The notes beneath the pieces are model-generated. The model was not told the DNA's origin, did no database searches, and was given only the letters and a program-made list of their open reading frames with translations. 64,000 nucleotides of DNA. Source: a virus. The stretch lies in the IMG/VR virus record IMGVR_UViG_3300027779_001649, positions 1 to 64,000 of that record; one strand, written 5' to 3'. The translations under genes and the position numbers were made by a program. Positions 32,415 through 48,367 of this stretch are shown here, piece by piece (position 1 is the stretch's first letter; the number at the start of each line of letters is the position of its first letter).

Positions 32415-32456
32415 AAAATAAAGTTCTTAAAACCCACTTTTATAAGTGTTAAAACA

Positions 32457-32464
32457 TATAAATA
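32457..32464 (+). promoter_or_regulatory. T4-type late promoter driving the + strand cassette (HNH-like, TAXI-TRAP)
   Basis: TATAAATA 5 nt before the ATG at 32470. Confidence 0.7.
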
Positions 32465-32469
32465 AACGT

Positions 32470-32772
32470 ATGGTAAATGCTCATTATGAAAAATATAAAG
32501 ACACTATTAAGAAGTGTGCGAGAAGAAACTACCGCAAAAGGATAGTATTACTTAATGAGTTCTTAGCCGATAAACACTGTAAACATTGTGGAGAAATGGA
32601 GACTGTGTGTCTCAAATTTTACCCACATGACTCAGAAATCCGAAAAATTACAAAGAGAGTTGGAATTAGTGATGAAAGTCGTACTGAAATCACTAAATTA
32701 ATGAGCGATTCCATCATTCTTTGTTCAAATTGTTGGATTAAATTAGATAATGATCTAATTGAATTTATATAG
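32470..32772 (+). CDS. Degenerate HNH-like Zn-binding protein
   Basis: CKHCG...CLKFYPHD...LCSNCW. Confidence 0.55.
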   Translation: MVNAHYEKYKDTIKKCARRNYRKRIVLLNEFLADKHCKHCGEMETVCLKFYPHDSEIRKITKRVGISDESRTEITKLMSDSIILCSNCWIKLDNDLIEFI

Positions 32773-32789
32773 AAAGAGAGAGGAAAGAC

Positions 32790-33725
32790 ATGAATATATT
32801 AAAAGGGCTTATCTTCGTCCTAGCACTAATGATTCCCAATACATTGTATGCCTTAGAACTTGGTACTACAAAAGGTACTGCAAATTACCAAACGGGTATC
32901 GCATTGTCAAAAGTAATCACACAACATGGAGTAAAAATACACCCTGTACCACATAGAGGAACTAATATCTACACAGAACGAGTAAATGTTGGTAAATTAG
33001 ATTTTGCTATTGCGGGTGCATATCATCTATATTGGGCAAGGACAGGGACAGGCCCAGTTAAATATCCCCATAAAAATCTTCGTTTTGTAGCTAATCTACA
33101 AAACTTTAGAACCACATATGCAGTTAGAAATAATTCTAACATTAAGACTTATGAAGATTTAGAGGGTAAAAGAGTACCTTCGGGATTTGCAGGAGCACCA
33201 TCCTTTCATTGGATGATGGAAGCAAATCTAGCAAACGGTGGGTTAACTTGGGACGATGTAACTCCTGTGCCTGTTACTTCATTACCAAAATGTTGGGCTG
33301 GTCTTCAAATTGGTACTATTGATGTTTGCACCTTTGCAATAGGTTCTGGTTCTGCGAAGAAATTTAATATCCTAACTCCAGGCGGTCTGAGAGGTTTAAG
33401 TTCAAATATCGGTCAAAAAGAACAGGATATGTTCAGAAATTGGAAGGGAGTAAGTATTGTTACTCAAAATCCTTCTGATAACTTATCTCTAATAAGGGGT
33501 AAAACTAGAGTCACGCAGTTTTCATATCAGCTTTTCACAAATAAAGATGTGCCTGTTGATGTTGTAAAGGATGTTGTTCTTGCACTATACGAGGGAGGAG
33601 AAGACTTTCAAAAGTCCTCTGGTTTCACTAAGTCCTTTAAAAAGGAAAACATGAACAAGAATGTTACAATTCCTATGCACTCAGGTGCAAAGAAGGCTTA
33701 TAATGAACTTGGACTTTCTGAATAA
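32790..33725 (+). CDS. TAXI-family TRAP solute-binding protein
   Basis: Signal peptide; LGTTKGTANY, NLRFVANL, DLEGKRVP, IPMHSGAKKAYNELGL. Confidence 0.9.
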   Translation: MNILKGLIFVLALMIPNTLYALELGTTKGTANYQTGIALSKVITQHGVKIHPVPHRGTNIYTERVNVGKLDFAIAGAYHLYWARTGTGPVKYPHKNLRFVANLQNFRTTYAVRNNSNIKTYEDLEGKRVPSGFAGAPSFHWMMEANLANGGLTWDDVTPVPVTSLPKCWAGLQIGTIDVCTFAIGSGSAKKFNILTPGGLRGLSSNIGQKEQDMFRNWKGVSIVTQNPSDNLSLIRGKTRVTQFSYQLFTNKDVPVDVVKDVVLALYEGGEDFQKSSGFTKSFKKENMNKNVTIPMHSGAKKAYNELGLSE

Positions 33726-35040
33726 GCTACTAACTGTACTACTTCTTATTGGGGTATCTAACATAGATTTCTATGTTGGGTATCCCTTTATGGATGAACA
33801 GTTATACTTTTTATTACTTCTTGTTAGTTTAAGCTGTATATTTAATAATATACTACTAATTCTAGGAGGAATTATATTATTCTTTGCATATCCCTACTTA
33901 TCTGAATATGCTCTTTCAGAAGTAACGACCTTACGATTACTCGCAATACCTTTACTATCACTTATTTTCTGGAGTTTGTATAGAACCAGTGGTAGGGGGT
34001 TTGCAATTATTTTTGGTCTATTCTTATTATACCCATTTTTAGTATATAATCCAATAAAGGCACTTGACATTTTATCATTCATCGTAATTGATAATACTGC
34101 TATGTTAGGTATCGCAATGTATATAATATGTGGTATAGTGTTTATGTTTGTTATATTTGGACAATTAATGGTGCATATTGGTCTGATTGATAAGTTAATG
34201 TATTATATTACCAGACACATAAAATCCCCTGCTAGGGTTGCAATTATGTCCTCTGCCGTGTTTGGTAGTGTATCTGGTGCAGCAGTATCTAATGTTATGA
34301 GTACAGGACAACTTACAATCCCTCTCATGATAAAATGCGGTTATTCTAAAGTTAAAGCAGCTGCATATGAAGCAGTCGCATCTACTGGAGGACAACTCAT
34401 GCCTCCAATTATGGGTGCAGCTGCATTTCTTATGGCAGAAACTCTATCTATATCATATTGGGAGGTTGTTAGGGTTGCGATAATACCTTCACTCTTATTC
34501 TATTCTATATTACTTTTAACAGTACCCAAGGAAGAAAAAAAACACAGCCCGAGGATTATAAAAAAACGACTTCGGTATCCCCCCCTTGGTCAATTGGTGC
34601 TTGACACGGGTAATATAATGTCTGGACTAATAATTTTAGGCGCAGCTATAGGTTTAATCATAGGAATAATGGATCAAACTGGACTATCTTTCCATATTTC
34701 AACTTATATTATAGAATTATCGGGGGGAAACTCCTTTTTATTACTTTTACTCACTGCAGCTCTCTGTATAGTCCTTGGAATGGGTATGCCAACGGTATCA
34801 ACCTATCTTATTGTTAGTGTTGTCGCAGCCCCTGCATTAGTAGAATCAGGATTTACTGAAATATACGCACATCTTTTTGTATTATATTATGGGTGTTTAT
34901 CTTTAATAACTCCACCAGTTGCAATATGTTCTTTTGCAGCTGCAAAGTTAAGTGGTGCAAATCCTATGGCAGTCTCATTAGAATCTGTATATATTGGGTG
35001 GCCGTTATTTCTAGTTCCATTCCTCTTTATAATGATGTAA
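33703..35040 (+). CDS. TAXI-type TRAP fused permease (DctQM), shortened
   Basis: FGSVSGAAVSNV, EAVASTGGQLMPPIMGAAAFLMAE, LGMGMPT, ITPPVA. Confidence 0.9.
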   Translation: MNLDFLNKLLTVLLLIGVSNIDFYVGYPFMDEQLYFLLLLVSLSCIFNNILLILGGIILFFAYPYLSEYALSEVTTLRLLAIPLLSLIFWSLYRTSGRGFAIIFGLFLLYPFLVYNPIKALDILSFIVIDNTAMLGIAMYIICGIVFMFVIFGQLMVHIGLIDKLMYYITRHIKSPARVAIMSSAVFGSVSGAAVSNVMSTGQLTIPLMIKCGYSKVKAAAYEAVASTGGQLMPPIMGAAAFLMAETLSISYWEVVRVAIIPSLLFYSILLLTVPKEEKKHSPRIIKKRLRYPPLGQLVLDTGNIMSGLIILGAAIGLIIGIMDQTGLSFHISTYIIELSGGNSFLLLLLTAALCIVLGMGMPTVSTYLIVSVVAAPALVESGFTEIYAHLFVLYYGCLSLITPPVAICSFAAAKLSGANPMAVSLESVYIGWPLFLVPFLFIMM

Positions 35041-36204
35041 GAAACCTCTCCAATCGTATTGTTCTATATTGTCTTTGGTTAGTATAGAACCATCATCCAG
35101 TATACCCCAAATTCTGTATGAAGATTTATCTACAACTCTATTTACAAGGTGTTGTCCTCTCAGAAGACTTATCACTTTACCATGACCATATGCATATTCT
35201 TTATCCTTAGTGAATTTGTATATATGGTCACGTAAAGGCATTTTGTAAGTTAAATAATGTTCGTGTTTCATATCATTAACGCAAATGTAAGTATCTGGGT
35301 TGTTTTCATCCATATTCCCAAATATAGTTCCACATGCTTCACGCCATCCTTTTCTATGTTGATTGACCGCCCACTTCTCCATAGGGGGTTGGACATAAAT
35401 CGGCAAATGATTACTCATATCCATTTTATCTCCCTCCCATTCGTAAATATATCTCAGACTTCCTACACACCACTTCTGTTTTCTTTTCGCTTCCCAAGTT
35501 TCATAGATTTGTTGGGGCGAAGTTACATATATGTTTGCAGATTTTCCATTACCGTTAGAACCAAACACTTCATCTGCTGTACCACAGGGACATAGTATAT
35601 GTTTATCTGGTGATGCTTCTTTAAATACATCGTGTGTTGTGTTGATTGTATGGTCTAAATGTTTTACTACTTTATCGTAATAGTCCTGATATTCCGTACT
35701 ATGTCCAATAATAACATGAAGTTGTTCGGGACATACCTCATTTAACGCAATAAGAGCTGCCGTAGAATCTATACCACCAGACCAAAAGAAATCTATAGTC
35801 TTTCCTGTTGATGCAAGAATTTCAGCAGATGCTATCAAAACATCTGTTATATCTAAATTTTCTACTTCGGGGTAATGTTTGTATTCTAACCACGGCATGT
35901 TCAGAGATTTAACAGAACTATTAAATGTATATTGTTGTTCAGTATCTCTGTTTAGAAGTACACCACCATCAAATCCCATTTCATGTAAGGTAACTCGCTC
36001 TTTTCTCCAATCCTGCCATAAATGTTTTATTTCGGGATGTCCTTTGAAAAAAAGGTTATGGGATTTATTGAAGTTATAATAGGCATTAGGGCCTGTCCAA
36101 CTTTCTTTGATGTTGTCTTTAGATACTCCAAAATGAGAATAACTTTTTTCTCTCATATATTTAATAAATGGCCGTCCATAGAAAACCAACCGATACTTAT
36201 CCAT
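35011..36204 (-). CDS. PP-loop ATPase (asparagine synthase C-domain-like), paralog A
   Basis: FFWSGGIDST, GTADEVFG, YKMPLRDHI. Confidence 0.75.
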   Translation of the reverse strand: MDKYRLVFYGRPFIKYMREKSYSHFGVSKDNIKESWTGPNAYYNFNKSHNLFFKGHPEIKHLWQDWRKERVTLHEMGFDGGVLLNRDTEQQYTFNSSVKSLNMPWLEYKHYPEVENLDITDVLIASAEILASTGKTIDFFWSGGIDSTAALIALNEVCPEQLHVIIGHSTEYQDYYDKVVKHLDHTINTTHDVFKEASPDKHILCPCGTADEVFGSNGNGKSANIYVTSPQQIYETWEAKRKQKWCVGSLRYIYEWEGDKMDMSNHLPIYVQPPMEKWAVNQHRKGWREACGTIFGNMDENNPDTYICVNDMKHEHYLTYKMPLRDHIYKFTKDKEYAYGHGKVISLLRGQHLVNRVVDKSSYRIWGILDDGSILTKDNIEQYDWRGFLHHYKEEWN

Positions 36205-36515
36205 TACGATTCTGTTTCAGATCTCTCTAAGTCAATGTTATTTGATACGTTGTGCGTGTCTCTTGCATTTAACATAGACTGTACAGTTTCATCCTCAACC
36301 CAATCATTCTTTGCATCTTGGTTAAGAAATGAGTAGGTAACAGTTTTAACCAAACCATCATCTGATATGGATTCTCCAAGACCACCTATTTTATAGACTC
36401 TTTTACCAGTGTCTATAAAATTAGTTTTAAGATATGCTGTAACATCATCTGTCAGAGAATGCCAAGCTGTATCGGTGTTTGGTCTAGTGAGTTTTATTGT
36501 TCCATTTATTGCCAT
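36204..36515 (-). CDS. ~100-aa family protein, copy 1
   Basis: LTRPNTD.W, ISDDGLV, NARD shared with 46693..46995; AGGAG RBS; TAATG-coupled to the PP-loop gene. Confidence 0.8.
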   Translation of the reverse strand: MAINGTIKLTRPNTDTAWHSLTDDVTAYLKTNFIDTGKRVYKIGGLGESISDDGLVKTVTYSFLNQDAKNDWVEDETVQSMLNARDTHNVSNNIDLERSETES

Positions 36516-36525
36516 TTTAATTCTC

Positions 36526-38169
36526 CTACCAATCGTTTTTGTAGCTTCTAACTACTGGTGACCACTTAGTTCCATATTCGTCTACCATTAATCCTATATT
36601 TTCATCTTCTAAACCAGTAACAACGAAACCAAATGGTGCCATGTCCTGTTCCATTGCATATTGGTTTTCTGCAATCATTTTCATTCGGACATCTAAATTA
36701 GTTAATTCCTTAAAGTACGTTTGGTCTGTAGCCCATGCAAATAGAAAACCACATGAAACTAAATCATCAGTACAACCATCGTCAGCTTCCCACGATTGTC
36801 CTTTCACTATAAAGGTAGATAATTCATTAACAAAGTCGTAATCCTCTATAATTAATTTATCATCCTCTACCATTTGTTTTAGATTGGAACAACCAATCTT
36901 CTTTGTTGCCTTTGTAGTTCGTACACCTAATTGAGCTTTACCCCCACTGAAACCTCCACCAAGTACCTGTCCTGACCTTCCACGCATACTTGTCATGCAT
37001 AGGTTGTCATATTCCAAGTCAAACTGCATAGTGTTTGCAACACCTTCTCCTATATCATTTATCTCTATCAATACATATGCTTGATTATATGCCCGTGCGA
37101 GATCGTATATCTTCTGTGGATACACAAGGGGTTTAATCTCATTGTCTCTGTACTTTGCGACTACTGTGTATGGCATTTGTGAGATATCAAATATAATAAA
37201 TGCAGAGTAATCGTTAGATGTTCCTCTAGAAACATCACAAGTAATAAAATAAGTGTGGTCTTCTTCTGGGTTCTTATATACCTCTAATCCAGCATTTGAC
37301 ATTATCGGATCTATAAAGGACAGTGTTCTAAGTTTCCTTGCAGATATAAGAGTATCAATAGAACCTAAGAATTCACAACCAAACTCAGTATTAAACTGTT
37401 GTTCACTTGTATTCTTAATTGTTTCGGCTTTCCAGGCGTCATCTCTTCCAGGCACTTCACTCCAATGAACTTCTATGGGAATATATGAGTTTCTCTCATG
37501 TTCAGCATCAGTCCACATCTTGTAAAACATATTCATACCGTGTGGAGTAGAAACGATCATTACTTTACTTGTTTTACCAGAGGAAATAGTAGGATACACT
37601 GAACTAAAGAATTGTTCTGCTACATTAGCTGGTACATAAGCAAACTCGTCAAGGAAAATAATGTTATATGAACCACCACGAACCGCACTAGCACTAGTTG
37701 AACTCGCAAGTATTTTAGAACCATTTTCTAACTCCAGACTACCCTTGTTCCAAGACATAACGCCTTGTTGTAACCATTTGGGTAAATGTTCATATGCTAA
37801 CTGCAACCTTCCCAACAAATCTCTAGCAGTCGCAGCCTTATTCGCAAGAATGGCAACATTTACAGTCTCATTAAACAAAACATAATGCAGTAAGTAGGCG
37901 ATGATAGTAGTAGATTTTCCAGACTGTCTAGGAAGTTTACAAATGGTGAAACGATTGTTGTGAAATGTTCCTATCATCTCCTTCTGAAAATCATACAGTT
38001 TAAAAGGAACAAGACCCTCATCAATATTAACAATCTTAATATATTCTTGTATAAAATATATTGGATCTTTCATACATTTAGTATATTCCTCTAGCTCTTC
38101 CTTTGTCCAATTCTGTTGGACATTTGCTTTTTTGAGGTTAGGATTGCCGAGGTAGACTGAATCAGACAT
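36526..38169 (-). CDS. gp17: Terminase large subunit
   Basis: YLGNPNLK, PRQSGKST, LDEFA, STPHG, DDLV. Confidence 0.97.
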   Translation of the reverse strand: MSDSVYLGNPNLKKANVQQNWTKEELEEYTKCMKDPIYFIQEYIKIVNIDEGLVPFKLYDFQKEMIGTFHNNRFTICKLPRQSGKSTTIIAYLLHYVLFNETVNVAILANKAATARDLLGRLQLAYEHLPKWLQQGVMSWNKGSLELENGSKILASSTSASAVRGGSYNIIFLDEFAYVPANVAEQFFSSVYPTISSGKTSKVMIVSTPHGMNMFYKMWTDAEHERNSYIPIEVHWSEVPGRDDAWKAETIKNTSEQQFNTEFGCEFLGSIDTLISARKLRTLSFIDPIMSNAGLEVYKNPEEDHTYFITCDVSRGTSNDYSAFIIFDISQMPYTVVAKYRDNEIKPLVYPQKIYDLARAYNQAYVLIEINDIGEGVANTMQFDLEYDNLCMTSMRGRSGQVLGGGFSGGKAQLGVRTTKATKKIGCSNLKQMVEDDKLIIEDYDFVNELSTFIVKGQSWEADDGCTDDLVSCGFLFAWATDQTYFKELTNLDVRMKMIAENQYAMEQDMAPFGFVVTGLEDENIGLMVDEYGTKWSPVVRSYKNDW

Positions 38170-38171
38170 TA

Positions 38172-38477
38172 TTATACTCCAAAACTTTCACCACATCCAC
38201 AACTACTCGTAGATGTTGGATTTTTCACTGTTAGAAAACTACCACCGAGCTCGGTTATATAATCAATCTCACTACCCAAAACGTACATCTCAGCAAGTGG
38301 GTCAACCACAAGAACATCCTCTATAGGCTCAGACCATTCAACATCAGGCAGATTGCTCTTCAGATTCCAGACATACTGGAAACCAGAACATCCTCCACCG
38401 ACAACAGCCAGTGTTACAAAGTCTCCCTTAGATACAGACTTTAAGTAGTCTCTTGCAGATTGTGTTAATGTTACCAT
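38172..38477 (-). CDS. HesB/IscA-family Fe-S carrier protein
   Basis: GGGCSGFQY, CGCGESF. Confidence 0.93.
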   Translation of the reverse strand: MVTLTQSARDYLKSVSKGDFVTLAVVGGGCSGFQYVWNLKSNLPDVEWSEPIEDVLVVDPLAEMYVLGSEIDYITELGGSFLTVKNPTSTSSCGCGESFGV

Positions 38478-38482
38478 ATCGT

Positions 38483-38490
38483 TATTTATG
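38483..38490 (-). promoter_or_regulatory. Late promoter variant CATAAATA (iscA-like gene, leaderless spacing)
   Basis: 5 nt before the ATG; no SD. Confidence 0.45.
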
Positions 38491-38884
38491 TCTTTTCTTT
38501 CATTAATTTTTGTAACTCTGCTGTAGAACCAACAAATAAGGCGTTAGTTACATTCTTAGGTGCAGTATTAGGAACGTCCTGTAATCTTTTCATCTTCTCT
38601 TGTAAGTCACCTAGTTTTTCGGTAACTTCTGCGACCTGTTTGATAAGATTTCCAGCAACCTCATATCCTCTTGGATGTTCGCCTTCCTTTGCGAGTTCAA
38701 GTATTCCGTCAATCGCAACTGAACCCTTTTCAACAAGTTCATGAAATTTTTGCCTTTGATATTCATAGTCTGTTTCAATATCCTGTTCCTTATCTGCGAC
38801 AATTAGTTTTGTTACAGGAGTCTCTGTAACCTCTAATTCTTTTCCAATAACACCCAAGGCACTATCTATAGTTTTAGTATCCAT
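38486..38884 (-). CDS. gp16: Terminase small subunit
   Basis: DYEYQR, HPRGYEVAG, NALFVGSTAELQK. Confidence 0.92.
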   Translation of the reverse strand: MDTKTIDSALGVIGKELEVTETPVTKLIVADKEQDIETDYEYQRQKFHELVEKGSVAIDGILELAKEGEHPRGYEVAGNLIKQVAEVTEKLGDLQEKMKRLQDVPNTAPKNVTNALFVGSTAELQKLMKEKT

Positions 38885-39265
38885 TTAGTTCACCTCTACT
38901 ATCTCTTGGACTGATGTGGAATGAGAGTTATATGCTTCGCCAAATTCTTCTCTTAATTTGGTACTTATTGTAGTCGCACAATATTTTTTACATACCCTAG
39001 GAGCATTTTGTGGATCTTTTATTAAACCTTCATAAAATTCTGTCCATTCTTTAGAATTAATTATATCGTCAATAGTCTCTACATTACTTAGTTTTAAATG
39101 TTCTTTAAAGAATATTTCTTCAATACCTATATGGTATGTTGGTGTTTGTCCATCAACAGTTTGATAGGGGTCTGTCCAACAACAAGGAATTAAATATCCC
39201 CTTGCAGAATAACCATAACCTTTACCAGATAAACATCTGGGCTCTAATTTTCTTTTTACTGGCAT
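38885..39265 (-). CDS. Stand-alone SPASM/twitch-like Cys-rich protein, partner of 39256..40113
   Basis: PRC...GYLIPCCW...VCKKYC; GAGGAGG SD before MPVKRK. Confidence 0.7.
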   Translation of the reverse strand: MPVKRKLEPRCLSGKGYGYSARGYLIPCCWTDPYQTVDGQTPTYHIGIEEIFFKEHLKLSNVETIDDIINSKEWTEFYEGLIKDPQNAPRVCKKYCATTISTKLREEFGEAYNSHSTSVQEIVEVN

Positions 39266-40113
39266 AATGAACTCCTCCTCAACCACTGTTCTTCATTCCA
39301 AGGAAGTTTATCATCCACATCCTTTACTCTATTATTAACTTCAGTAGTAGTAAATGGTTTGCTACTAATAAAATTTTTTGTATTTTTTGGTTTAAATTCA
39401 TCATCATCTCCTCTCCATCTAGAAGAGTATAATTTTAAAAACCTAATACCAGCATCTGTTGCACGTTTCTGAACCTCATCTATGTGATCTTCATTATAAC
39501 TAAAAACTATGCATTGTTGTTCAACCTGTAACCCCATATATTTAGCTATCATCGCCATTTTCCAAAGTTTTTCACCGTCCTGATTAACTCTATACTTATG
39601 ACTTTCTTCTGGTAATCCATCTATACCAAATCTCCACACTGCTAGGGGATGTATTTCAAATGCCTTTTTATACCACTTCTCTGACCTATGTGAAGCTGCG
39701 GTTGCAATACATGTATAGACTTTTTCTTCATAACATCTACGTAAAATATCGTGGAACTTAGGATGGGCGGTTGGATCTGAAATTTGACCACAAAAAAGAA
39801 TATTAGTAAAATGCATAAGAATCTTATCAAAATCTTCAAGGGACATATCGTGACCAGGCGGTTTCATGCCAGAGGCGGCATAATCCTGTCTCCTACATCT
39901 TGGACAGGCTAGAGGACATCTTGGAGATAAATCTATATTAATTTTAGTACGATACTTCGCTTTATATATTAATTCATCATTAGATAATTTATCGTTTGAT
40001 CCCTTTGTCCAATGATCTCGTTGAGTGAGTATTGGTTTTTTTAAAGACCTTTTAGCTATCTGAGTTCTAAGATCTAGTTCTTTTAACTCACCTTTAGTGT
40101 ATTCTACAGGCAT
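39256..40113 (-). CDS. Radical SAM protein
   Basis: RCPLACPRC, GQISDP, FGIDG, YRVNQD. Confidence 0.9.
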   Translation of the reverse strand: MPVEYTKGELKELDLRTQIAKRSLKKPILTQRDHWTKGSNDKLSNDELIYKAKYRTKINIDLSPRCPLACPRCRRQDYAASGMKPPGHDMSLEDFDKILMHFTNILFCGQISDPTAHPKFHDILRRCYEEKVYTCIATAASHRSEKWYKKAFEIHPLAVWRFGIDGLPEESHKYRVNQDGEKLWKMAMIAKYMGLQVEQQCIVFSYNEDHIDEVQKRATDAGIRFLKLYSSRWRGDDDEFKPKNTKNFISSKPFTTTEVNNRVKDVDDKLPWNEEQWLRRSSLCQ

Positions 40114-40116
40114 AGT

Positions 40117-40917
40117 TTATTCATCGTCACCTGTTACTGGATTAAATGTTTTAGCATCTTCAAAGAAAGAGGTTGCTTCATTAAATCCAAAATTATCATC
40201 AGCTTCAGCTGTCATGGGAGACGGTGTAACCACCAACCTTTGTTCTCTCTTAGGTGATGCATCTGGCATATCTGTATATTGATCTGCTTGCACTGTTTTA
40301 ATAACTTTACTAGAGCTAACTGGACCGTAGAGATAAAATTTACAAGTGAAAGCTAGTGTATATACTATTGCTCGTCTCGCAGTAAAGTCACCTTCATAAC
40401 TATCTTCATATGAAACACTATTAAGAATTAAAGGAATGTCCCTTTTAATTCCCATATCTGCCATATCATTTATCGTCACCGTATAGTCTGGTTGAAAGTA
40501 TGGTAGAATTTGTTCTACGATCTGTAATGCGTCCTCAGATTGTTTAGCCATTATGTAAAGCTCAAATGAGAGATTATAAGGAACAGGCATATATTGTGTA
40601 TCTAGTTGAGTTGAATTTGCACCTTTAACTTTTTTGAATTTCTGTACACGATTAAGTTTACGAGCTGCATCGTATTCTAGATTCTTAATTTCAAATCCTA
40701 TACGTGGAAGTGTAACTGCAACCTGTTTTGTAAGGTCTGCATCTTCACGTAATCGGACTAGAAATTTTTCTTTCGGGCCGTATGCAAGAGGAACTTTCAT
40801 AGTTTGTACTACGGTTCCACTGCTATCTTTACGAACCAAGTGTATGTTGTTGAATATTGATCCAAACGCAACAACCACCTTTCTCATGGTTTCGTGGTAA
40901 AATTGTTGTCCTAACAT
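40117..40917 (-). CDS. gp15: Tail sheath stabilizer/completion protein
   Basis: FYHETMRK, VPLAYGPKEKFL, QIVEQILPYFQP. Confidence 0.95.
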   Translation of the reverse strand: MLGQQFYHETMRKVVVAFGSIFNNIHLVRKDSSGTVVQTMKVPLAYGPKEKFLVRLREDADLTKQVAVTLPRIGFEIKNLEYDAARKLNRVQKFKKVKGANSTQLDTQYMPVPYNLSFELYIMAKQSEDALQIVEQILPYFQPDYTVTINDMADMGIKRDIPLILNSVSYEDSYEGDFTARRAIVYTLAFTCKFYLYGPVSSSKVIKTVQADQYTDMPDASPKREQRLVVTPSPMTAEADDNFGFNEATSFFEDAKTFNPVTGDDE

Positions 40918-41927
40918 TATAATCCTCCAGCATCACCGAAAGGATTTCTTTCGGAGAAGTCTAATACGTCATCATCAAGGGAATCAAACAGTTCATTTTG
41001 TGTAGTCTTGTCTTGCGACATATCACCCACTACGTAATCTTCATTGAGTAAGTAAGAATCGTCACCACTGTCTGCTGGGTTCTCTAATATAATACTTTCA
41101 CCAACACCACTTGTATCATTCTCACCTATGAGATTATCTCCACTAGTCTCTTCTAATAGGAGTCCTTGATCTCCATTAGTACTTATACCGATTTCTAATC
41201 GTATATTCTCATTGACAAAGGCAGTTTGTTCTAAGGTCATCTGATAACCAAGAGCATCCATTGTATGTTCTGTTTCTATTGCATCTATAGCTGCAATGTC
41301 TGTGTCAATAACCTCAGAGCTGTAGTCAAATAATCTACATTGTAGTTTATATACTGGGTTATTATCCAGTTGATAAAAAGGTTCGTCATGGTCTACAAAA
41401 TTTATTTGGAATATTTTATCCAGAACTGGATGGTATATTAAATCACCTTCCAATGGTCTATCTGCATCTGTAGAGGTAGCTTCTGAAATTAAATAACCCC
41501 CATCATAAGAACTACTAATATCTACAACGGTACTATCTAAAGAGGCTGCTTCTAATTGAATAGAACCACTTAGAGTGGATGTACCACTTTCTATTGTCAT
41601 TTGTTTTGTTAAATCTTGAAACCTTGTTTTACTTACAGTAAATGTAACCTGACTTAGATTTTGTAAACCAAACTGAGTCATCAGTTCTCGTTCACCAGCA
41701 AAACCTCCATCGCCGTTATCAATATACATCTCTATTTTATTTTGGGTAGTAAATTTTGCGAGGTTGTCTTCACCAAAAAGAGTGTCTTCATTAGTTAAAG
41801 TGCGATCAAGATAGTAGACATCATGACCGAAAATTTGAATGGCTTCAGTAAGTAAATTTGAATACAGATTCTTCTCTGCGGTAATAGCATGAGAATTACT
41901 AGTATGAAAGAATGAATTGACTGACAT
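40917..41927 (-). CDS. gp14: Neck protein
   Basis: GHDVYYLDR, RPLEGDLIY, PFYQL, DFSERNPFG. Confidence 0.92.
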   Translation of the reverse strand: MSVNSFFHTSNSHAITAEKNLYSNLLTEAIQIFGHDVYYLDRTLTNEDTLFGEDNLAKFTTQNKIEMYIDNGDGGFAGERELMTQFGLQNLSQVTFTVSKTRFQDLTKQMTIESGTSTLSGSIQLEAASLDSTVVDISSSYDGGYLISEATSTDADRPLEGDLIYHPVLDKIFQINFVDHDEPFYQLDNNPVYKLQCRLFDYSSEVIDTDIAAIDAIETEHTMDALGYQMTLEQTAFVNENIRLEIGISTNGDQGLLLEETSGDNLIGENDTSGVGESIILENPADSGDDSYLLNEDYVVGDMSQDKTTQNELFDSLDDDVLDFSERNPFGDAGGL

Positions 41928-41930
41928 AGT

Positions 41931-42749
41931 TTATCCTACATGAAACATTATTGGGGGTTCATTACTTAATATCGTTGTTTCTATTTCTCTAATTTCTTCC
42001 TGAGCTTGTGTAAAGATAGCTGCACCATCCATACTAACACCCCCCAGCATCGTAACTCCATTGAACTTAGAAAGATTTGCACCCCATTGACGTTTAATTA
42101 AAGCTGTTGCATATCTTTTTAGATGGATGTCATCATAAATGTCTGTGTAAACTGAGGGATCTAATTTACGGAAACACTCTATAACAACATAGTCCTCTCC
42201 ACCCACAAAGTCTGTAGACCAATCGGCGTCAATATATAAACGATTTTGATGTTCCTTAAAACGAATAGGAGCTTCACCAACAAGAATATGTTCTAGTAAA
42301 TCTAAATTATTCATCATCATCTGGTAATGGATAACAGAAGTGGAAGTCAGATCAAACAAATCGTTTAGATGTAACTGATAACGAGCATCAAACATATTTG
42401 CACCAGTTCCAGTTCCAGTTAAAGGAAATACCTGTACTACAGAGATAACTGAACTAGGTAATGGTATATAATTATTACCCTCAGACCAATCTGCGGTAAT
42501 AGTATCATCTACTGTATCTGTTCCTGTAGTGGTTGTATTTGTTTTAGCTCTAGTAACTTCTGCTTCAGTAACCAAATGTTTGAGATACATTCTTTCAACA
42601 CCATCATAATGATACTGTGCAAAATACTGTAGTGCTTCGTCAATACGGTCATCTGTTTGGTCATCTGACACATTAATGTCAATCACTCCATAACCCAATG
42701 CTCGTAGACAATAAGTCTTAAATGTTGCTTTTGTTGTTGGTACTGCCAT
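41931..42749 (-). CDS. gp13: Neck protein
   Basis: YCLRALG, INVSDDQ, KRQWGANLSKF. Confidence 0.93.
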   Translation of the reverse strand: MAVPTTKATFKTYCLRALGYGVIDINVSDDQTDDRIDEALQYFAQYHYDGVERMYLKHLVTEAEVTRAKTNTTTTGTDTVDDTITADWSEGNNYIPLPSSVISVVQVFPLTGTGTGANMFDARYQLHLNDLFDLTSTSVIHYQMMMNNLDLLEHILVGEAPIRFKEHQNRLYIDADWSTDFVGGEDYVVIECFRKLDPSVYTDIYDDIHLKRYATALIKRQWGANLSKFNGVTMLGGVSMDGAAIFTQAQEEIREIETTILSNEPPIMFHVG

Positions 42750-42768
42750 AATTCCCTACCTTTTACTA

Positions 42769-42776
42769 TATTTATA
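42769..42776 (-). promoter_or_regulatory. T4-type late promoter (gp13)
   Basis: TATAAATA about 20 nt upstream of gp13. Confidence 0.8.
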
Positions 42777-43275
42777 AAAGAAGAGGTCTGGTTACTACGC
42801 AATTATCATCATCAAAGTAACTCTGTTTGACGAAATTTACCCCAGTATATGCGTATAAAGCACTCAATTTTGGATATGACCATATAATTTCACATCCTCT
42901 TTTTCTTCCATAATCCATAGTCTCATTTAATAACCAAGTTGATAGACCTAATCCTCTATGTTTAGGATGTACCCATAACCCCCTAGACCTATAAATTTTA
43001 AGTCCACATTGAGATCCTGAGTTAACACCCACTATTTCTTCATATGATTCTCCATAATGACTAACGTATTTTATTGCTATAAAGACAGAAGTTTTGAGAT
43101 ACCTTTTAATATCTAACTGTCTTATAACTTTATTTCCCTCCAAAGCCCATGTACTATGGGGATAAATGGTTTTCTTATTTTTCCATAAGTCCGACTTCCA
43201 TACCTTATATATCTCCTCAAACGACACGGGTTCTAGATAGTACAGCTTATTTTCCCCAGTAATAATCTGCGGCAT
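42772..43275 (-). CDS. GNAT acetyltransferase
   Basis: RSRGLWVHPKHRGLGLS motif A; start uncertain. Confidence 0.8.
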   Translation of the reverse strand: MPQIITGENKLYYLEPVSFEEIYKVWKSDLWKNKKTIYPHSTWALEGNKVIRQLDIKRYLKTSVFIAIKYVSHYGESYEEIVGVNSGSQCGLKIYRSRGLWVHPKHRGLGLSTWLLNETMDYGRKRGCEIIWSYPKLSALYAYTGVNFVKQSYFDDDNCVVTRPLLL

Positions 43276-44323
43276 AATTATAAGGAGTAAATGCTTTGTT
43301 CTTATAAGGAACTACTTTACTTGCCCATTTCTTTTGACTCGCAAGAACTTTCCGAAACCATTTGTTCTTTTTGGATTCTTCTTTAAACATAATATCTATG
43401 GTTTTCAATTCTGCAACAAGAATATCAGGTGGTGTCTTCATGATACGCACCCCATGCTTTTCAACCATTCTTGATAACGCTCTTGCGTTTTCGGATTGTA
43501 TCCAAGTGAGCCACCACAGATAGGACTCATATGCAGCAGAACGCACTGAGGCACGTTGAGAGTCAGATAGACTCCTCCAGATACCACCATTAATAAGAAG
43601 GTCACCAGTATTACTATGTTCATGTAAACTATTTAGATAGTAATATTTCCAGATAGTTGGAAACCCTAGTCTTTCATCTTCTAATCCACCGACAAATTCT
43701 GCACAGTTGATTACACCTTTCTGTCCAGCAGCAAGAATCTCTCCACCAGGCATACCAATAGTCTGCATACCCATACGAGCATATAGTTCTACATTAATGC
43801 CTGTCTGTCTGCACTTAAAGTTTTTAAGGTCTGCAAGGTTTTCAATTGGACGATGGAACCACCCCAAAGGTTGATTCTGAGTAGGCATAACAGGGAAAGG
43901 GACTACATCCAGTTTCAACACTTCTTGATAAAATGTACGATACATCTCTAGTCCACCACCGTGAAACATCCATCCAAGAAAATCAATACCATCCATTCCA
44001 TATGGGCCTCCTAAAGGAGAGTTAAATAGTCCTAGAGTTTTATCCTTACCCACCCAATAATAACTCTGTGTCCATGCACCTCCCACAGCACCAGATGCTG
44101 TTGCATCAAGAACTTGAAAGGCTGGGACTAAAGCACCAGCAGGTTTAATCTCCATCAGAACTTTACCATCAGTTAGAACTTTAACTTTATCTGCAATGAA
44201 CTTTGCTTGTTCATTGAAAGTACTAACAGCAGGATAAGAACTTGCGATTAAGATTTTTGTGCCCGCAGATGCAGGGGAAAAGGTTAATAGGATGGCAGCC
44301 GCAGCCATATAAATATATTTCAT
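43247..44323 (-). CDS. dctP: TRAP solute-binding protein (TakP/FcbT1-like)
   Basis: Signal peptide ending ASA; PAGALVPAFQVLDA, YYWVGK, GWFHRPI, KCRQTG, CAEFVG. Confidence 0.92.
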   Translation of the reverse strand: MKYIYMAAAAILLTFSPASAGTKILIASSYPAVSTFNEQAKFIADKVKVLTDGKVLMEIKPAGALVPAFQVLDATASGAVGGAWTQSYYWVGKDKTLGLFNSPLGGPYGMDGIDFLGWMFHGGGLEMYRTFYQEVLKLDVVPFPVMPTQNQPLGWFHRPIENLADLKNFKCRQTGINVELYARMGMQTIGMPGGEILAAGQKGVINCAEFVGGLEDERLGFPTIWKYYYLNSLHEHSNTGDLLINGGIWRSLSDSQRASVRSAAYESYLWWLTWIQSENARALSRMVEKHGVRIMKTPPDILVAELKTIDIMFKEESKKNKWFRKVLASQKKWASKVVPYKNKAFTPYNYAADYYWGK

Positions 44324-44349
44324 GATTACTCCTTATTCAAATCACTTCT

Positions 44350-45594
44350 CTAGTTATTTAGGTACGTTGGTAACCACGTTGCTATACTAGGAATCATAAA
44401 AATAATTATCACAGCAAGTACCTGTATCCACATAAACGGCATCATACCTTTAAATATCATACCCAAATCCCATTCTGGAACGACCTGTTTTATATAATAT
44501 GATGTTAACGCAACGGGTGGTGTTAAGTAGGCAGTCTGTATAACTATCCCTAAACAAACTGCAAACCATAACATATCCACACCAGAACTAATAAGAACTG
44601 GTAAGAATATGGGAACAAATACCAACACTACCACAGGCCATTCAAACGGCCATCCCAATAGATGACATAGTACTAGTATACAACCGACTAATGCCCAAGG
44701 GGGTATTGGTAAAGAATTTAAGGTGTCCACTATCACGTTATCGCCGCCTAGTGCAGTAAAGACCGCACCAAATATTGTGGAGGAGATTGCGAGTAGCATA
44801 ACCACAGCAGAAGTGTCTGTAGTTTTTAATAGAGTTTCTTTCAGTTCTAACTTACCGTTTAACAATGCAAGAACTAATGCACCGAAAGCACCAAACGCAC
44901 CAGCTTCTGTAGACGTTGCAAGTCCAAATAACATAGAACCTAACACAGTAGATATAAGAACTGCTAGAGGGATAACATCTATTAAAACTCTACGATAGTC
45001 TGGTGTCTCTTGTTGTTTGGGTACAGAATGAAATAGACAGTATATCGCATACATTGATGCAATCATTAATCCTGGCACTAATGCTCCAGCATAAAGATCA
45101 ATAATACTAAGGTTCATAGTAGGAGCCATAACTATAAGAGGAACGGATGGTGGTATCATAATAAGAGAACCACCACCAGCAATAACTCCTGCCGTCAATT
45201 TCGGATTGTAACCTAGTTTCATCATATGAGGAGCTGCCATAATACCAAGTAATGTTACAGACGCACCAACTACTCCTGTCGCAAGACTTATCAATACTGC
45301 AATAACAATAACAACTAAGTTAAGATTACCAACTATAGTTTTCATACTATAGAATAGTTTCTCAACTAATCCTGCCTTTTCGCAAATATAACCCATGAAT
45401 ATAAACATAGGTATAGCCATGAATACTTCGTTTGATAATGCGCCGACTAAGTTATAGTACGCAAGATCAAATACATTCTCCCCCATAGAGAGAAATCCAA
45501 AACCTAATGCTAGAAATATAAGAGTGAAAGCTACAGGTAAACCCAAAAATATACCTATAATCATAGTCACTAACATCACAATCGCAAGCAACAC
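44350..45594 (-). CDS. dctM: TRAP large permease
   Basis: GLPVAFTL, AIPMFIFMG, MIPPS, TSTEAGAFG, QTAYLTPP. Confidence 0.93.
   Translation of the reverse strand: MLLAIVMLVTMIIGIFLGLPVAFTLIFLALGFGFLSMGENVFDLAYYNLVGALSNEVFMAIPMFIFMGYICEKAGLVEKLFYSMKTIVGNLNLVVIVIAVLISLATGVVGASVTLLGIMAAPHMMKLGYNPKLTAGVIAGGGSLIMIPPSVPLIVMAPTMNLSIIDLYAGALVPGLMIASMYAIYCLFHSVPKQQETPDYRRVLIDVIPLAVLISTVLGSMLFGLATSTEAGAFGAFGALVLALLNGKLELKETLLKTTDTSAVVMLLAISSTIFGAVFTALGGDNVIVDTLNSLPIPPWALVGCILVLCHLLGWPFEWPVVVLVFVPIFLPVLISSGVDMLWFAVCLGIVIQTAYLTPPVALTSYYIKQVVPEWDLGMIFKGMMPFMWIQVLAVIIIFMIPSIATWLPTYLNN
44355..44362 (-). promoter_or_regulatory. Possible late promoter variant CCTAAATA (dctP)
   Basis: About 30 nt upstream of the dctP start. 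Confidence 0.4.
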
Positions 45595-46019
45595 TTCCTC
45601 ACTTCCTGTACACCATATATCAATAACAAAATTAATCCTAAAGTAATAGAAAATTTATATGGCCATATTATTAATTGCGTCATTGTATTGGAACTCTTTT
45701 CCCATATAGAAATGCTTCTAAAACTATCCATTGCAGAATAGTACGTGAGAATACCAATAGAGGGAAAGAATAGACAGTAACCTAGAAGATCTATGATTGA
45801 TTTTGTTCTATCTGAAAAGTTCTTCCAGTAGATATCTGTTCGTATGTGAGTTCCTTTGGAAAGACTATAACTAGCACCTAATATAATTAATGCGCCATAT
45901 AATTGTGGTACGATATCAACAGCAAAGTCAAATCTTAAATCAAAAAAAAATCTACCTAGAACATTGGTAACAGTTAGTAAAACGATTCCCAAAACAAACC
46001 ATGAATATATTTTAATCAT
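45576..46019 (-). CDS. dctQ: TRAP small permease
   Basis: NVLGRFFF, LGASYSLSKGTHIRTD, four hydrophobic segments. Confidence 0.9.
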   Translation of the reverse strand: MIKIYSWFVLGIVLLTVTNVLGRFFFDLRFDFAVDIVPQLYGALIILGASYSLSKGTHIRTDIYWKNFSDRTKSIIDLLGYCLFFPSIGILTYYSAMDSFRSISIWEKSSNTMTQLIIWPYKFSITLGLILLLIYGVQEVRKCCLRL

Positions 46020-46700
46020 CTACTTCTTAATTTGCATATGAGCATTAAAACTCATACTCCTTCTTTCACCTTTAACATGAAATGGATAGACAAAGTGTTT
46101 TAAATAGGACGGAAAAACTAATAACTTTCCAACCTCTGGTTTAAATTTTACACCATCACTTCGCATATCACAAGCCTCTCCATACATAAATTCAATCAAA
46201 CCATTCGCAGGGTAATGGTCTTCACCATCCTCTTGATATTCTCCTTCCATCTCATCAGGTAATTTTAAATAGATGACGGCTGAAAAGTCACCACTATGTT
46301 TATGCCAAGGATTATACTCCCCAGCATATTGACTGACTATCCAGCTCTGTGTTAAATGGATGTTATCTAATTGGGGAACAGTACTATGTCCTGACATCTT
46401 GTACCAATTATATGCTCTATTCTTGTCTCTTATATAATTTAGGTAGTCCAGACATCCCCTCTTCATAGTATCAGAGAGATACTTCTTATCATCATCAGAG
46501 GAAATTGGTATCTGAATTTCCTTATGAACCTTGCCTACCAGATTATCAGACCAATCCCATTGAGCACTTTGTTGCTCACTACTTAGTATCTTGTCTCCAA
46601 CCTTATTTACAATTTTAACGAACGTCTCTGGTACAGAGGTTTCTAAAATCGTAGGACTGAATACTTCATGCCAAATCTTATCCCCTCTTATCTTAGTCAT
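46020..46700 (-). CDS. Putative 2OG-Fe(II) oxygenase (TIGR02466-like)
   Basis: YNPWHKH, SAVIYLKLP, FPSYLKHFVYPF, RRSMSFN. Confidence 0.85.
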   Translation of the reverse strand: MTKIRGDKIWHEVFSPTILETSVPETFVKIVNKVGDKILSSEQQSAQWDWSDNLVGKVHKEIQIPISSDDDKKYLSDTMKRGCLDYLNYIRDKNRAYNWYKMSGHSTVPQLDNIHLTQSWIVSQYAGEYNPWHKHSGDFSAVIYLKLPDEMEGEYQEDGEDHYPANGLIEFMYGEACDMRSDGVKFKPEVGKLLVFPSYLKHFVYPFHVKGERRSMSFNAHMQIKK

Positions 46701-46995
46701 CTATTTCTTCATTTGCGGCAGATGCGGTTATCTCATTTTCAATACAGTAAATATCTCTTGCATTAAAAAACTCTTGGGCATCTGCTTCTTCGTTAAAATT
46801 AAATCTACTTTCATAAGTATCAAATAATGCTATTGCCGTCATTACCAAACCATCGTCTGAAATTATCTTAGAGACAATTCGCCGTTTTCCTGACTTATCA
46901 TATTTCCAACTAAGTGTATGAAATTTTTCTGACATTGGATACCATTCAACATCTGTGTTCGGACGGGTTAAAGTATACGTTTGTTTAACACTCAT
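46693..46995 (-). CDS. ~100-aa family protein, copy 2
   Basis: LTRPNTDVEW, SGKR, ISDDGLV, NARD; AAGGAG RBS. Confidence 0.8.
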   Translation of the reverse strand: MSVKQTYTLTRPNTDVEWYPMSEKFHTLSWKYDKSGKRRIVSKIISDDGLVMTAIALFDTYESRFNFNEEADAQEFFNARDIYCIENEITASAANEEIDD

Positions 46996-47692
46996 TTAAA
47001 TTGTTCTCCTTTACTGGGCTTCGTCTATTATAAAATACTTTTCCTTCAGAACTTATTCCATAGACACACCCCTGTTCATATTTATATGTTCTAATCATAT
47101 GATTACTCATCTGGGGGCCTCTCTCTATGTATTTGTTGTTTGCCCAACCCTCAAATGATGGATGCAGATAAAATGGTTGAAAATTTTCTATAGGAAAAGA
47201 ATCCCCTTGAAAATTACTAAGAACATTCCAAGATTGTGTTAAAAGGAAATATCTAACTCTCTCTTTCCACCGTCTATCCACAAAGGTAAACAGAGTACTG
47301 TATTCATGGGGAGTAACAACTACCCGTGTCAGTATACGAGGATTATTTATATTAAATTTAAATAATTGATCTGAAGGACATACTTCTTTAAGATATTTTG
47401 AGACAACATCATCCTCATACACCTCTATCTCCTTGTCCATATCTCTTAACTTACAGGCCCTTTCGTAACATAATTGTGTAAATCCTTTATCATCTAGATC
47501 ATTATTATATTCATATGGTGGAGATTTGTAGTATGTACCATCCATTTCAAATGGGGTATCAATAAACTCACCCTCTTTGTCATTCACATAACTGTAGGAC
47601 GGTTGACCATACTTAATAATCAAGTCATGTTCTTTTATACTCTTCGCAGATTTGACATTGCGTAGCTCTGGTGTAACATAAACAAATTTCAT
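46985..47692 (-). CDS. Degenerate PP-loop paralog lacking SGGxDS (paralog C)
   Basis: RACKLRDMDKEIEVY, LKEVCP, RYFLLTQS, ENFQPFY align to 50697..51854. Confidence 0.7.
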   Translation of the reverse strand: MKFVYVTPELRNVKSAKSIKEHDLIIKYGQPSYSYVNDKEGEFIDTPFEMDGTYYKSPPYEYNNDLDDKGFTQLCYERACKLRDMDKEIEVYEDDVVSKYLKEVCPSDQLFKFNINNPRILTRVVVTPHEYSTLFTFVDRRWKERVRYFLLTQSWNVLSNFQGDSFPIENFQPFYLHPSFEGWANNKYIERGPQMSNHMIRTYKYEQGCVYGISSEGKVFYNRRSPVKENNLNEC

Positions 47693-47710: not shown

Positions 47711-48367
47711 ATGGAACCACCTTATAGATTAGGTCTTGTTGCCACCAGTAGAAGTGGAAGTACATATTTTCGTAGATATCTTTGCGATAAATATGGTCTA
47801 CACGATTCGGCCTCATGGTTAAAACACAATCCCTATGAAAAGATAAATGAAGCCCCCTTTGCAAAGAAACATCATATTCTAAAAATTCTAACACACTATG
47901 TTCCTGATGATGAAATAGATGAAGTTATATCAGAATCAGAAACAGTATGGTTATATAGAAAGAATACGTTTAAGCAGTTTCTCTCTCATGTCTACCGACT
48001 AATAACCAAGATAAATTTGGTATATAAGAAGGAAGAAATAGAGTTTTTAAAAAATAGTATTCCAAACAATAGTATTGTAGCCACAACAGAACAATACGAT
48101 ACTTTCATGAGAAGACTTGAAAAATTTTGGGATTTATTTTATAGTAGAAATAAAGGAACACTAGTAGAATATGAAAAATTTGTTTCTGATCCAAAAGAAG
48201 TTGGTTGGGAAATTATGGAAGACTATAATTTAGAATGGATAACGTGGGAATCTATGGAGCCGGAATCACATGGATGGCCTGATATTAAAATACCATTGAA
48301 AATGTCCATAGATTATGAAAATAAATTTAAAAATATAGAGGAAATTAGGAAATGGTTTAATGGGTAG
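47711..48367 (+). CDS. Sulfotransferase-like protein (Stf0-type)
   Basis: ATSRSGSTY PAPS-binding loop; LYRKNTFKQFLS; VEYEKF. Confidence 0.7.
   Translation: MEPPYRLGLVATSRSGSTYFRRYLCDKYGLHDSASWLKHNPYEKINEAPFAKKHHILKILTHYVPDDEIDEVISESETVWLYRKNTFKQFLSHVYRLITKINLVYKKEEIEFLKNSIPNNSIVATTEQYDTFMRRLEKFWDLFYSRNKGTLVEYEKFVSDPKEVGWEIMEDYNLEWITWESMEPESHGWPDIKIPLKMSIDYENKFKNIEEIRKWFNG

Follow-up and report, generated by a model that had tools for sequence, protein, structure and literature searches.

Positions 32470-47692 of the stretch analysed here (hereafter the window: 64,000 nt, positions 1 to 64,000 of IMG/VR record IMGVR_UViG_3300027779_001649) carry two copies of a gene neighbourhood in which a gene of one PP-loop ligase family lies with a gene for a protein of ~100 aa and with the genes of a tripartite ATP-independent periplasmic (TRAP) transporter (Table 1). 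The source is an uncultured, marine, pelagimyophage-like T4-type phage. Identity of its terminase large subunit (TerL) reaches 68.7% with the counterpart in OM43 phage Melnitz and 67.5% with the one in Pelagibacter phage HTVC008M, and gp13, gp14, gp15, gp16, gp17 (TerL), gp18 and gp19 follow one another in T4-type order, all on the minus strand. The parent record measures 88.8 kb (~49% complete according to CheckV), and a megablast of the region against cultured phages returned no match. Accessory genes occupy the gaps among the structural genes, copy 1 being placed between TerL and gp18 and copy 2 upstream of gp13. Relatives of the ligase recur beside genes for organic-acid-binding proteins in several unrelated phage lineages, and this association is the subject of the present analysis.

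In copy 1, the genes for the small protein (P0002) and the ligase (P0001) share one base, in ...TCGTAATGG... (TAATG), and the ligase gene is convergent on the TAXI permease gene with an overlap of 30 nt. Copy 2 holds paralogues of both proteins, P0003 (35% identical to P0002, E 8e-16) and P0004, which aligns only weakly with P0001 in pairwise comparison (24% over 88 aa, E 2e-5), along with a DctPQM transporter. The initial annotation, which had been made from the letters alone, is confirmed for gene coordinates, TAATG overlap, SGGIDS motif, paralogy and both TRAP subtypes. That annotation also called the copy-2 gene a degenerate PP-loop gene. The PP-loop block is indeed missing, the family-profile match of P0004 (E 9e-15) being confined to positions 42-112 and 206-261, but the gene is not a recent wreck: it belongs to a conserved short subfamily found in the window, L003 and L080. 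In a FastTree phylogeny of 120 distinct ligase-family open reading frames (ORFs), in which several long branches were flagged, P0004 forms a clade with L003_807 and L080_1837, and a small-family gene follows each of them. The GNAT gene had been counted as a member of the copy-2 TRAP operon, an assignment that we drop, the GNAT-gp13 pair being constant also in TRAP-less loci such as L003, L009, L023, L029 and L100. For these and all later comparisons, viral loci (designated by L numbers) were fetched by ligase alignment (78), by DctM (19), by TAXI permease (29) and by TerL alone (80), and the families were mapped on them with profile hidden Markov models from our own alignments and with phmmer.

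Table 1. Genes of copies 1 and 2 and of the surrounding virion-gene frame, in window coordinates.
Feature	Position	Strand	Match or remark
Tail sheath gp18	30347..32362	-	phrog_23 9.5e-130; opposite wall of TerL-gp18 cargo slot
TAXI-type TRAP solute-binding protein, 311 aa	32790..33725	+	PF16868 4.3e-22; best PDB TAXI receptor 9oz4 1e-13
TAXI-type fused TRAP permease, short form, 459 aa	33661..35040	+	PF06808 4e-53; ~13 hydrophobic segments
Orphan PP-loop adenylating enzyme (putative) P0001, 397 aa	35011..36204	-	SGGIDS motif; AsnB-synthetase-domain-like predicted fold
Small partner protein (putative) P0002, 103 aa	36204..36515	-	predicted DABB/ABM-like fold; TAATG-coupled to ligase
Terminase large subunit gp17 (TerL)	36526..38169	-	PF03237/PF17289; one wall of TerL-gp18 cargo slot
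gp16	38486-38884	-	
gp15	40117-40917	-	
gp13-like neck protein	41931..42749	-	phrog_211 4.4e-39; wall of second cargo region
GNAT acetyltransferase	42772..43275	-	PF00583 5.2e-8
TRAP DctP binding protein, TakP/keto-acid-binder-like	43247..44323	-	PF03480 2.2e-27
TRAP DctM, large membrane subunit	44350..45594	-	PF06808 7.6e-60
TRAP DctQ, small membrane subunit	45576..46019	-	PF04290 4.9e-19
2OG-Fe(II) oxygenase	46020..46700	-	PF13759 1.7e-17; between small gene and DctQ
Second small DABB-family protein P0003, 100 aa	46693..46995	-	family profile E 8.5e-39
PP-loop-less ligase paralogue P0004, 235 aa	46985..47692	-	partial family-profile match
Third ligase-family paralogue, 385 aa	50697..51854	-	family profile E 6.6e-78, positions 4-356

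FFWSGGIDS occupies residues 139-147 of P0001, and WSGGxDS plus 11 further positions are invariant across 30/30 aligned relatives. Its relatives in a large protein collection (35 at E<=1e-3 among 1041 candidates) are all unnamed or 'hypothetical' marine metagenome proteins. No Pfam family matched P0001 at E<=0.01, no PHROG match was usable and there were no PDB profile matches; among 30 members of the family, PF00733 touched one (E 0.028) and TIGR01536 two (at 0.01), both below the cut-off. The AlphaFold (AF2) model of P0001 (pLDDT, the predicted value of the local distance difference test, 87.7; predicted template modelling score, pTM, 0.89) was compared with solved structures (VIA) and reached Z 10.6 with human ASNS (root-mean-square deviation 3.7, 206 aligned), covering most of the model, followed by beta-lactam synthetase (10.2), the hydroxyamidotransferase TsnB9 (9.8), the carbapenam synthetase CarA (9.4) and AsnB (7.8). 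Other PP-loop folds (GMP synthetase, NAD synthetase, LarE, TilS, QueC) stayed at Z <=6.1, and Foldseek linked the model to AsnB-type synthetase folds at E 1.5e-3 to 1e-2. The structural alignments begin at about residue 140 of the solved enzymes, and the glutaminase domain is therefore missing from the phage ligase; likewise, the glutaminase family has no match in it and the protein begins MDKY, without a Cys following the initiator Met.

By its predicted fold P0001 is thus best described as an orphan AsnB-fold adenylating enzyme, one that the sequence-based searches do not assign to AsnB. With the AsnB synthetase domain, beta-lactam and carbapenam synthetases and TsnB9 it has the PP-loop SGGxDS and the predicted fold in common, and by analogy its chemistry would be expected to be alike, carboxylate adenylation followed by amide formation. 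Unlike AsnB, it lacks a usable sequence match and the N-terminal nucleophile (Ntn) glutaminase domain, and it is found only in viral and metagenome sequence. The family is apparently phage-only: two ligase motifs scanned over the genomes of 185,579 species found no relative, a scan that is bounded by its patterns, and tblastn of three family members against cultured phages gave no match. Tandem arrays with up to five divergent ligase paralogues are present in L022 (6143-12128, between gp16 and DctQMP-TerL) and in L026/L030.

The strongest evidence on the company kept by the ligase comes from outside the window's clade. From the 78 ligase-fetched loci, 39 were chosen solely for encoding a distant ligase relative, leaving out the close clade (L001-L020, L022-L025, L028-L030) and duplicates, and their whole records were searched with Pfam models; 39 ligase-free T4-like records from the TerL sample served as control. 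Genes for TctC (PF03401) were found in 11/39 ligase-bearing records and those for DctP (PF03480) in 9/39, 19/39 having at least one of the two, against 0/39 in the control for each of the three counts, the control totalling ~0.57 Mb vs ~1.66 Mb. The membrane subunits, searched for in the ligase-bearing set only, were nearly absent: DctM (PF06808) in 0/39 and TctA (PF01970) in 1/39, ~25 kb off. Seven of the nine DctP records (L046, L048, L051, L055, L058, L059, L073) place DctP 56-70 nt upstream of the ligase. The distance from TctC to the ligase is <=120 nt in six of eleven (L033, L036, L039, L045, L067, L077), <=1 kb in two (L057, L072) and 4-7 kb in three; distances come from coordinate conversion, checked against the ORF lists and by Pfam for two examples. 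The DctP-type proteins of these records start without a hydrophobic segment, and the TctC-type ones have one. On the ligase tree, the records bearing a binding protein are scattered across seven or more separate clades. Since DctM is absent from the 39 records, TctA present once and DctP leaderless there, it is the acid-binding protein rather than transport as such that is linked to the ligase, and the window phage, with two importers, is the fullest version of the arrangement. For the pairing of binding protein and ligase, the synteny survey that the initial annotation had proposed thus has a positive outcome.

Both importers of the window look intact: all three DctPQM subunits, in adjacent genes, and both TAXI parts match their families above the cut-off. 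The closest PDB entries to DctP are 7ug8, a keto-acid-binding protein (7.6e-41), and 2hzk (1.4e-38), which we take to be TakP, and the TAXI binding protein matches PDB TAXI receptors at 1e-13 to 1e-8. A simple hydropathy script marks the N-termini of the TAXI binding protein (MNILKGLIFVLALMIP..., hydropathy 2.55) and of DctP (MKYIYMAAAAILLTFSPASAG, 2.21) as hydrophobic and signal-like, and those of the ligase and small proteins as not signal-like. Small keto- or hydroxy-acids or amino-acid-type carboxylates are probably the cargo. In comparison with known TakP-type DctPQM and TAXI-type systems, the window versions are complete but phage-borne and long diverged. TAXI permease homologues in phage contigs are 46-61% identical, and the 459-aa permease is presumably shorter than is usual for TAXI permeases. 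The phage DctM proteins are 67-90% identical among phage contigs and <=48% to the best of 80 bacterial matches, among which there is no Pelagibacter record; this divergence (43247-45594 vs L204-L283) suggests a long-resident phage lineage, not recent host capture. A third DctP-family gene (26214-27281, minus strand; PF03480 2.4e-24) has no hydrophobic N-terminus, resembles the leaderless ligase-side DctP of cyanophage-like contigs (E 1.2e-36 to the L048 protein) and adjoins a nitroreductase gene (25541-26203, minus strand) between the portal and prohead-protease genes.

The AF2 model of the small protein P0002 (pLDDT 91.4) has a predicted beta-alpha-beta-beta-alpha-beta arrangement over its whole length, and its ten best structural matches (VIA) are dimeric alpha+beta-barrel (DABB)/ABM proteins throughout (ABM monooxygenases, Dabb, EthD; Z 9.1-8.0). 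In the ESM Atlas ranking viral-only clusters come first, then ABM, Dabb and DUF1330. The predicted fold is accordingly one that the small protein shares with the named DABB families (ABM monooxygenases, Dabb, EthD, DUF1330). Unlike them, it stays below the Pfam cut-offs (ABM touches 3/45 members, best E 0.011; Dabb 1/45 at 0.086), carries no Pfam or PHROG name and has a conserved motif of its own, TRPNTD near the N-terminus, with R11 invariant. At E<=1e-3 the family numbers 1325 clusters (50% identity), a figure that falls to 378 at E<=1e-10.

Ten of 17 distinct small genes directly adjoin a ligase-family gene (gap <=37 nt). Of the remainder, two lie at 375-417 nt and four at 1.8-2.5 kb from such a gene, and the last two are found 3.9 kb off behind DctQMP and at a contig end. 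Small-gene loci were mostly picked via the ligase, which biases plain proximity; direct adjacency is nonetheless far above the expectation from position within a 20-kb locus. Ligase/small pairs occur in both gene orders and across at least five ligase subclades. The divergent small proteins P0100 and P0160, used as queries for unbiased small-family loci, found none, and complex prediction for ligase plus small protein (alignments A1 and A2) scored 0.00 in both runs, which speaks neither for nor against binding. Taken together with the many ligase genes that do without it, the small protein fits a private partner better than a universal subunit.

Other genes take the place of the small gene in some loci, and the family has variants. 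In L006 (4481-5125; also L010, L013, L110) a gene for a 214-aa S-adenosylmethionine (SAM)-methyltransferase-like protein (PF08242, 4.2e-7) replaces it between TerL and the ligase. A second ~100-aa family (A6) lies directly upstream of ligase-family genes in other lineages, often with a 4-nt overlap (L036 6574-6888, L039 9477-9785, L045, L077, L048 8529-8831, L051, L055, L059); A6 was considered as a DABB relative and is taken as unrelated (hhalign probability 0.05). Fused or duplicated small-family forms are seen in L023/L024 (3455-4363 and 12480-13388, minus strand), P0042 and P0057, the variants being a 302-aa protein with a C-terminal domain and ~200-aa proteins with two matched stretches.

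On balance, we hold it to be an even call that these genes make up a loose phage toolkit for acid capture plus adenylation and amide formation, two instances of which sit in cargo slots of the virion-gene module of the window. The initial annotation had pictured an import-activate-ligate system with the small protein as substrate, carrier or partner; its recurrence and the adjacency of ligase and small genes (10/17) have held up, the carrier or substrate role has not, and the chemistry of the toolkit, ligation included, with its substrate, coupling and purpose, is what we infer here. The binding proteins, putatively exported, and their permeases would import one or two small carboxylates, the cargo of the TakP-like system probably being a keto- or hydroxy-monocarboxylate. 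In the cytoplasm, the AsnB-fold enzyme may activate a carboxylate by adenylation and transfer it to ammonia, to an amine or to an internal nucleophile, by analogy yielding an amide or lactam; the captured acid would be the substrate of the ligase or its precursor. The DABB protein could act as a private helper or a second small enzyme, and the PP-loop-less paralogue of copy 2 may be a scaffold or regulator. The product would serve the late phase of infection.

In the window's clade and close to it, the same parts are found in several combinations. The ligase gene is convergent on TAXI in the window and in L001, L010, L013, L017, L018 and L110. A ligase overlapping DctQ occurs in two slots, upstream of gp13 (L014/15) and between gp16 and TerL (L022), both within one ligase subclade. 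The order short paralogue, small gene, DctQMP is shared by the window and L080, the latter having no oxygenase and the small gene directly beside DctQ; L003 has the short paralogue, the small gene and GNAT, and no TRAP genes. On the 154-kb contig L121 (7629-11762), a porin-like gene (PF00267, 2.7e-5), a TAXI binding protein, a short permease and a ligase from a different subclade are co-directional, in the context of a replication/metabolism module with HSP20, a carbamoyltransferase and gp43 polymerase nearby. The TerL-gp18 slot itself exists in four states: empty save for an HNH-like ORF (100 aa, other strand), with ligase only, with ligase and TAXI, or with TAXI only. Among the 60 loci of the TerL sample with both sides covered, TAXI and ligase are both present in 5, TAXI only in 1 (L191), ligase only in 7 and neither in 47 (Fisher odds ratio 33.6, p 7.8e-4). 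In L191 the TAXI gene is a 225-nt permease remnant (2235-2459) between TerL and the HNH-like ORF, and the transporter appears to be decaying in that lineage.

These combinations leave room for mere co-location, in which the TRAP systems would be stand-alone organic-acid uptake boosters for a streamlined host, unrelated to the ligase and small genes with which they share cargo slots; we see this as a possible, somewhat doubtful, account. A good deal of what was found sides with it and weighs against a functional toolkit. Many types of cargo are accommodated in the slots TerL-gp18, gp16-TerL and gp15-gp16 and in the region upstream of gp13: in HTVC008M the same slots are taken by dioxygenases plus a halogenase, in Melnitz by a protein with an F5/8 type C domain, neither phage having the ligase or the small family, and the TerL-gp18 slot has neither ligase nor TAXI in 60/73 covered loci of the TerL-chosen sample. 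TAXI and ligase are apart in many loci. TerL, ligase and HNH-like ORF occur without TAXI in L002, L003, L006, L007, L008, L011, L012 and L016; TAXI abuts TerL with no intervening ligase in L099-L102, L104, L105, L107-L109, L111-L113, L115-L120 and L122, and in L099 and L100 no ligase was found anywhere between gp13 and gp19. TAXI presence also differs at least three times among close ligase orthologues on the ligase tree, and the TerL tree has only 3 TAXI changes and 2-3 independent contrasts, so that the TAXI/ligase association is left without power once corrected for phylogeny. No ligase lies in the covered flanks of DctQMP in L079, L084-L086, L088, L094, L096 and L097, and the nearest 80 bacterial DctM loci have neither the ligase nor the small family. 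Within the phage itself, the third DctP gene is without a ligase neighbour, and the two other ligase paralogues (the third one in Table 1 and a further one at ~86258..87595 of the same record) adjoin neither a small-protein gene nor a TRAP gene. Most ligase genes, finally, lack a DABB neighbour, some adjoining a methyltransferase or the A6 family instead.

Being frequent yet not obligate neighbours in this clade, the three parts are separable, occupy generic cargo slots and make slot sharing a real confounder. In the same phage group, the region that lies upstream of the neck genes is the pelagimyophage host recognition cluster (PMC7029224, Zaragoza-Solas et al. 2020), described in the accessible part of that paper as hypervariable, full of unrelated enzymes and holding non-tail-fibre accessory enzymes; its main text, to the same extent, has 0 occurrences of TRAP, asparagine, PP-loop or amidotransferase and mentions 'substrate transport' just in passing. 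Co-location leaves unexplained, however, the 19/39 vs 0/39 contrast, the direct adjacency in 13 or more records, drawn from several phage lineages unrelated to one another, and the TAXI-ligase pair outside the structural module in L121. Moreover, the binding proteins elsewhere come without membrane partners and DctP is leaderless, and plain nutrient uptake therefore cannot be their role there.

Improbable, in our judgement, is a further reading in which the ligases tailor a glycan, the virion surface or another host-recognition macromolecule, for instance by sugar-acid amidation, with the binding proteins delivering or holding the building block. The location would suit it: the genes lie in or beside the virion module near oxygenases, radical SAM/SPASM, sulfotransferase-like, kinase-like, GNAT and Asp/Asn hydroxylase genes, L022 and L026 have up to five ligase paralogues in tandem, and cyanophage-like loci have the ligase/binding-protein pair beside tail-fibre-like genes. 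Lipopolysaccharide-related genes are numerous in the cluster, as far as the accessible text of PMC7029224 goes. Within 32470-47692, however, there is no glycosyltransferase or sugar-nucleotide gene, and the solved structure 8wex, an N-acetyl sugar amidotransferase, resembles the ligase model only weakly (Z 3.6).

The components of the toolkit fall within superfamilies already known, and among characterised phage enzymes CmoY comes nearest. According to the passages available from PMC12783734, SpCmoY of Synechococcus phage S-B43, an asparagine-synthetase homologue from a related T4-like cyanophage, joins glycine to 5-carboxymethylcytosine and has many phage homologues, uncharacterised and with other predicted amine substrates; transporters are mentioned 0 times in those passages. 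A phage-encoded, asparagine-synthetase-like amide ligase of a marine T4-like phage is what the two would have in common, and the company differs, CmoY being accompanied by CmoA (Cx-SAM synthase) and CmoX (C5 cytosine transferase), the present ligase by acid-binding proteins or transporters and the DABB protein. That the ligases are CmoY-like DNA hypermodification enzymes, supplied by the importers with the amine or acid to attach, strikes us as distinctly unlikely: the ligase-family profile finds nothing in S-B43 at E<=1, where PF00733 detects CmoY at 4.4e-15, the same PF00733 touches a single one of 30 family members, and neither PF00145 (CmoX-type) nor TIGR00740 (CmoA) has a match in the 88.8-kb, ~49%-complete record.

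Least of all do we expect the small protein to be adenylated by the PP-loop enzyme as a ubiquitin-like carrier or as the precursor of a ribosomal peptide, as its translational coupling to the ligase and the precedent of PP-loop enzymes with protein partners might suggest, because a folded barrel with an unconserved C-terminus speaks against it: the small protein is confidently predicted as a compact DABB/ABM-type barrel, neither beta-grasp nor leader-core peptide, its C-termini are variable and without Gly-Gly, in contrast to sulfur/adenylate carriers such as ThiS, MoaD and TtuB (beta-grasp fold, C-terminal Gly-Gly), the copy-2 protein is paired with a PP-loop-less paralogue, and most ligase genes lack the small gene. 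Its predicted fold makes the role of helper likelier for the small protein than that of carrier or substrate.

Returning to acid capture coupled to amide formation, a bolder form of that reading can be put forward, though only tentatively and as something we would not count on. It would be a widespread, undescribed class of pathway in marine and freshwater phages, in which a transporter-type carboxylate-binding protein, exported with a permease as in the window or leaderless and cytoplasmic as in the cyanophage-like relatives, hands its specific small acid to a phage-only AsnB-fold ligase and a private small partner, giving an amide product in late infection only; in the window phage there would be two of these pathways, each for an acid of its own, and in one the PP-loop-less pseudo-enzyme would serve as scaffold or regulator. 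Our literature search returned no paper joining phage TRAP or binding-protein genes to such ligases.

Several neighbouring features deserve mention. The gap from gp15 to gp16 contains a radical SAM gene and a distinct gene for a SPASM domain (38885-40113, minus strand), as is also the case in L001, L003, L080 and L130, and a HesB-like Fe-S assembly gene (38172-38477, minus strand) lies between gp16 and TerL. A divergent operon (47711-50715, plus strand), in which one gene is weakly sulfotransferase-like and another APH-type kinase-like, and an Asp/Asn beta-hydroxylase gene (53881-54573, minus strand), add further tailoring-type enzymes beside the third ligase paralogue. The HNH-like ORF of the window (~100 aa, 32446-32772, plus strand, opposite to TerL and gp18) keeps its position in nearly all relatives; its PHROG match to HNH endonuclease is weak (E 0.0018), and the Melnitz counterpart is a hypothetical protein. 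Within its annotated start, at 32457, is TATAAATA, a sequence with 14 occurrences vs 10.1 expected that is suggestively placed only before gp18, TAXI and gp13, a weak signal that we do not treat as evidence. The same holds for terminator-like sites (14 vs 8.3 expected), and a sigma-70 promoter scan was at chance (70 vs 68.5).

Contigs of a DNA run from another study, ~90-97% alike, span the TAXI/ligase and the ligase/small junctions singly. A joint 32772->36596 in run X2, whose shorter side is only 21 letters, probably derives from empty-slot relatives. Contigs from RNA libraries map to TerL, to the TAXI binding-protein gene and to the HNH-like ORF, and the ligase and small genes have none; such libraries may contain DNA and contigs lose rare sequence, and the pattern says neither expression nor silence.

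Auxiliary transport genes of phages are usually read as simple nutrient boosters; here, across many uncultured phages of aquatic habitats, genes for acid-binding proteins are genetically tied to an orphan, putatively amide-forming family. Two large families so far labelled 'hypothetical' gain names and predicted folds, the ligase family and the DABB-type family with its at least 1325 clusters (50% identity). The window offers an entry point to both, with two complete importers of measurable ligands, and with an intact ligase, a natural PP-loop-less paralogue and the small partner, all of them expressible. If the proposed toolkit is real, it would mean a virus-made metabolite or modification new to science, in viruses of the most abundant ocean bacteria.

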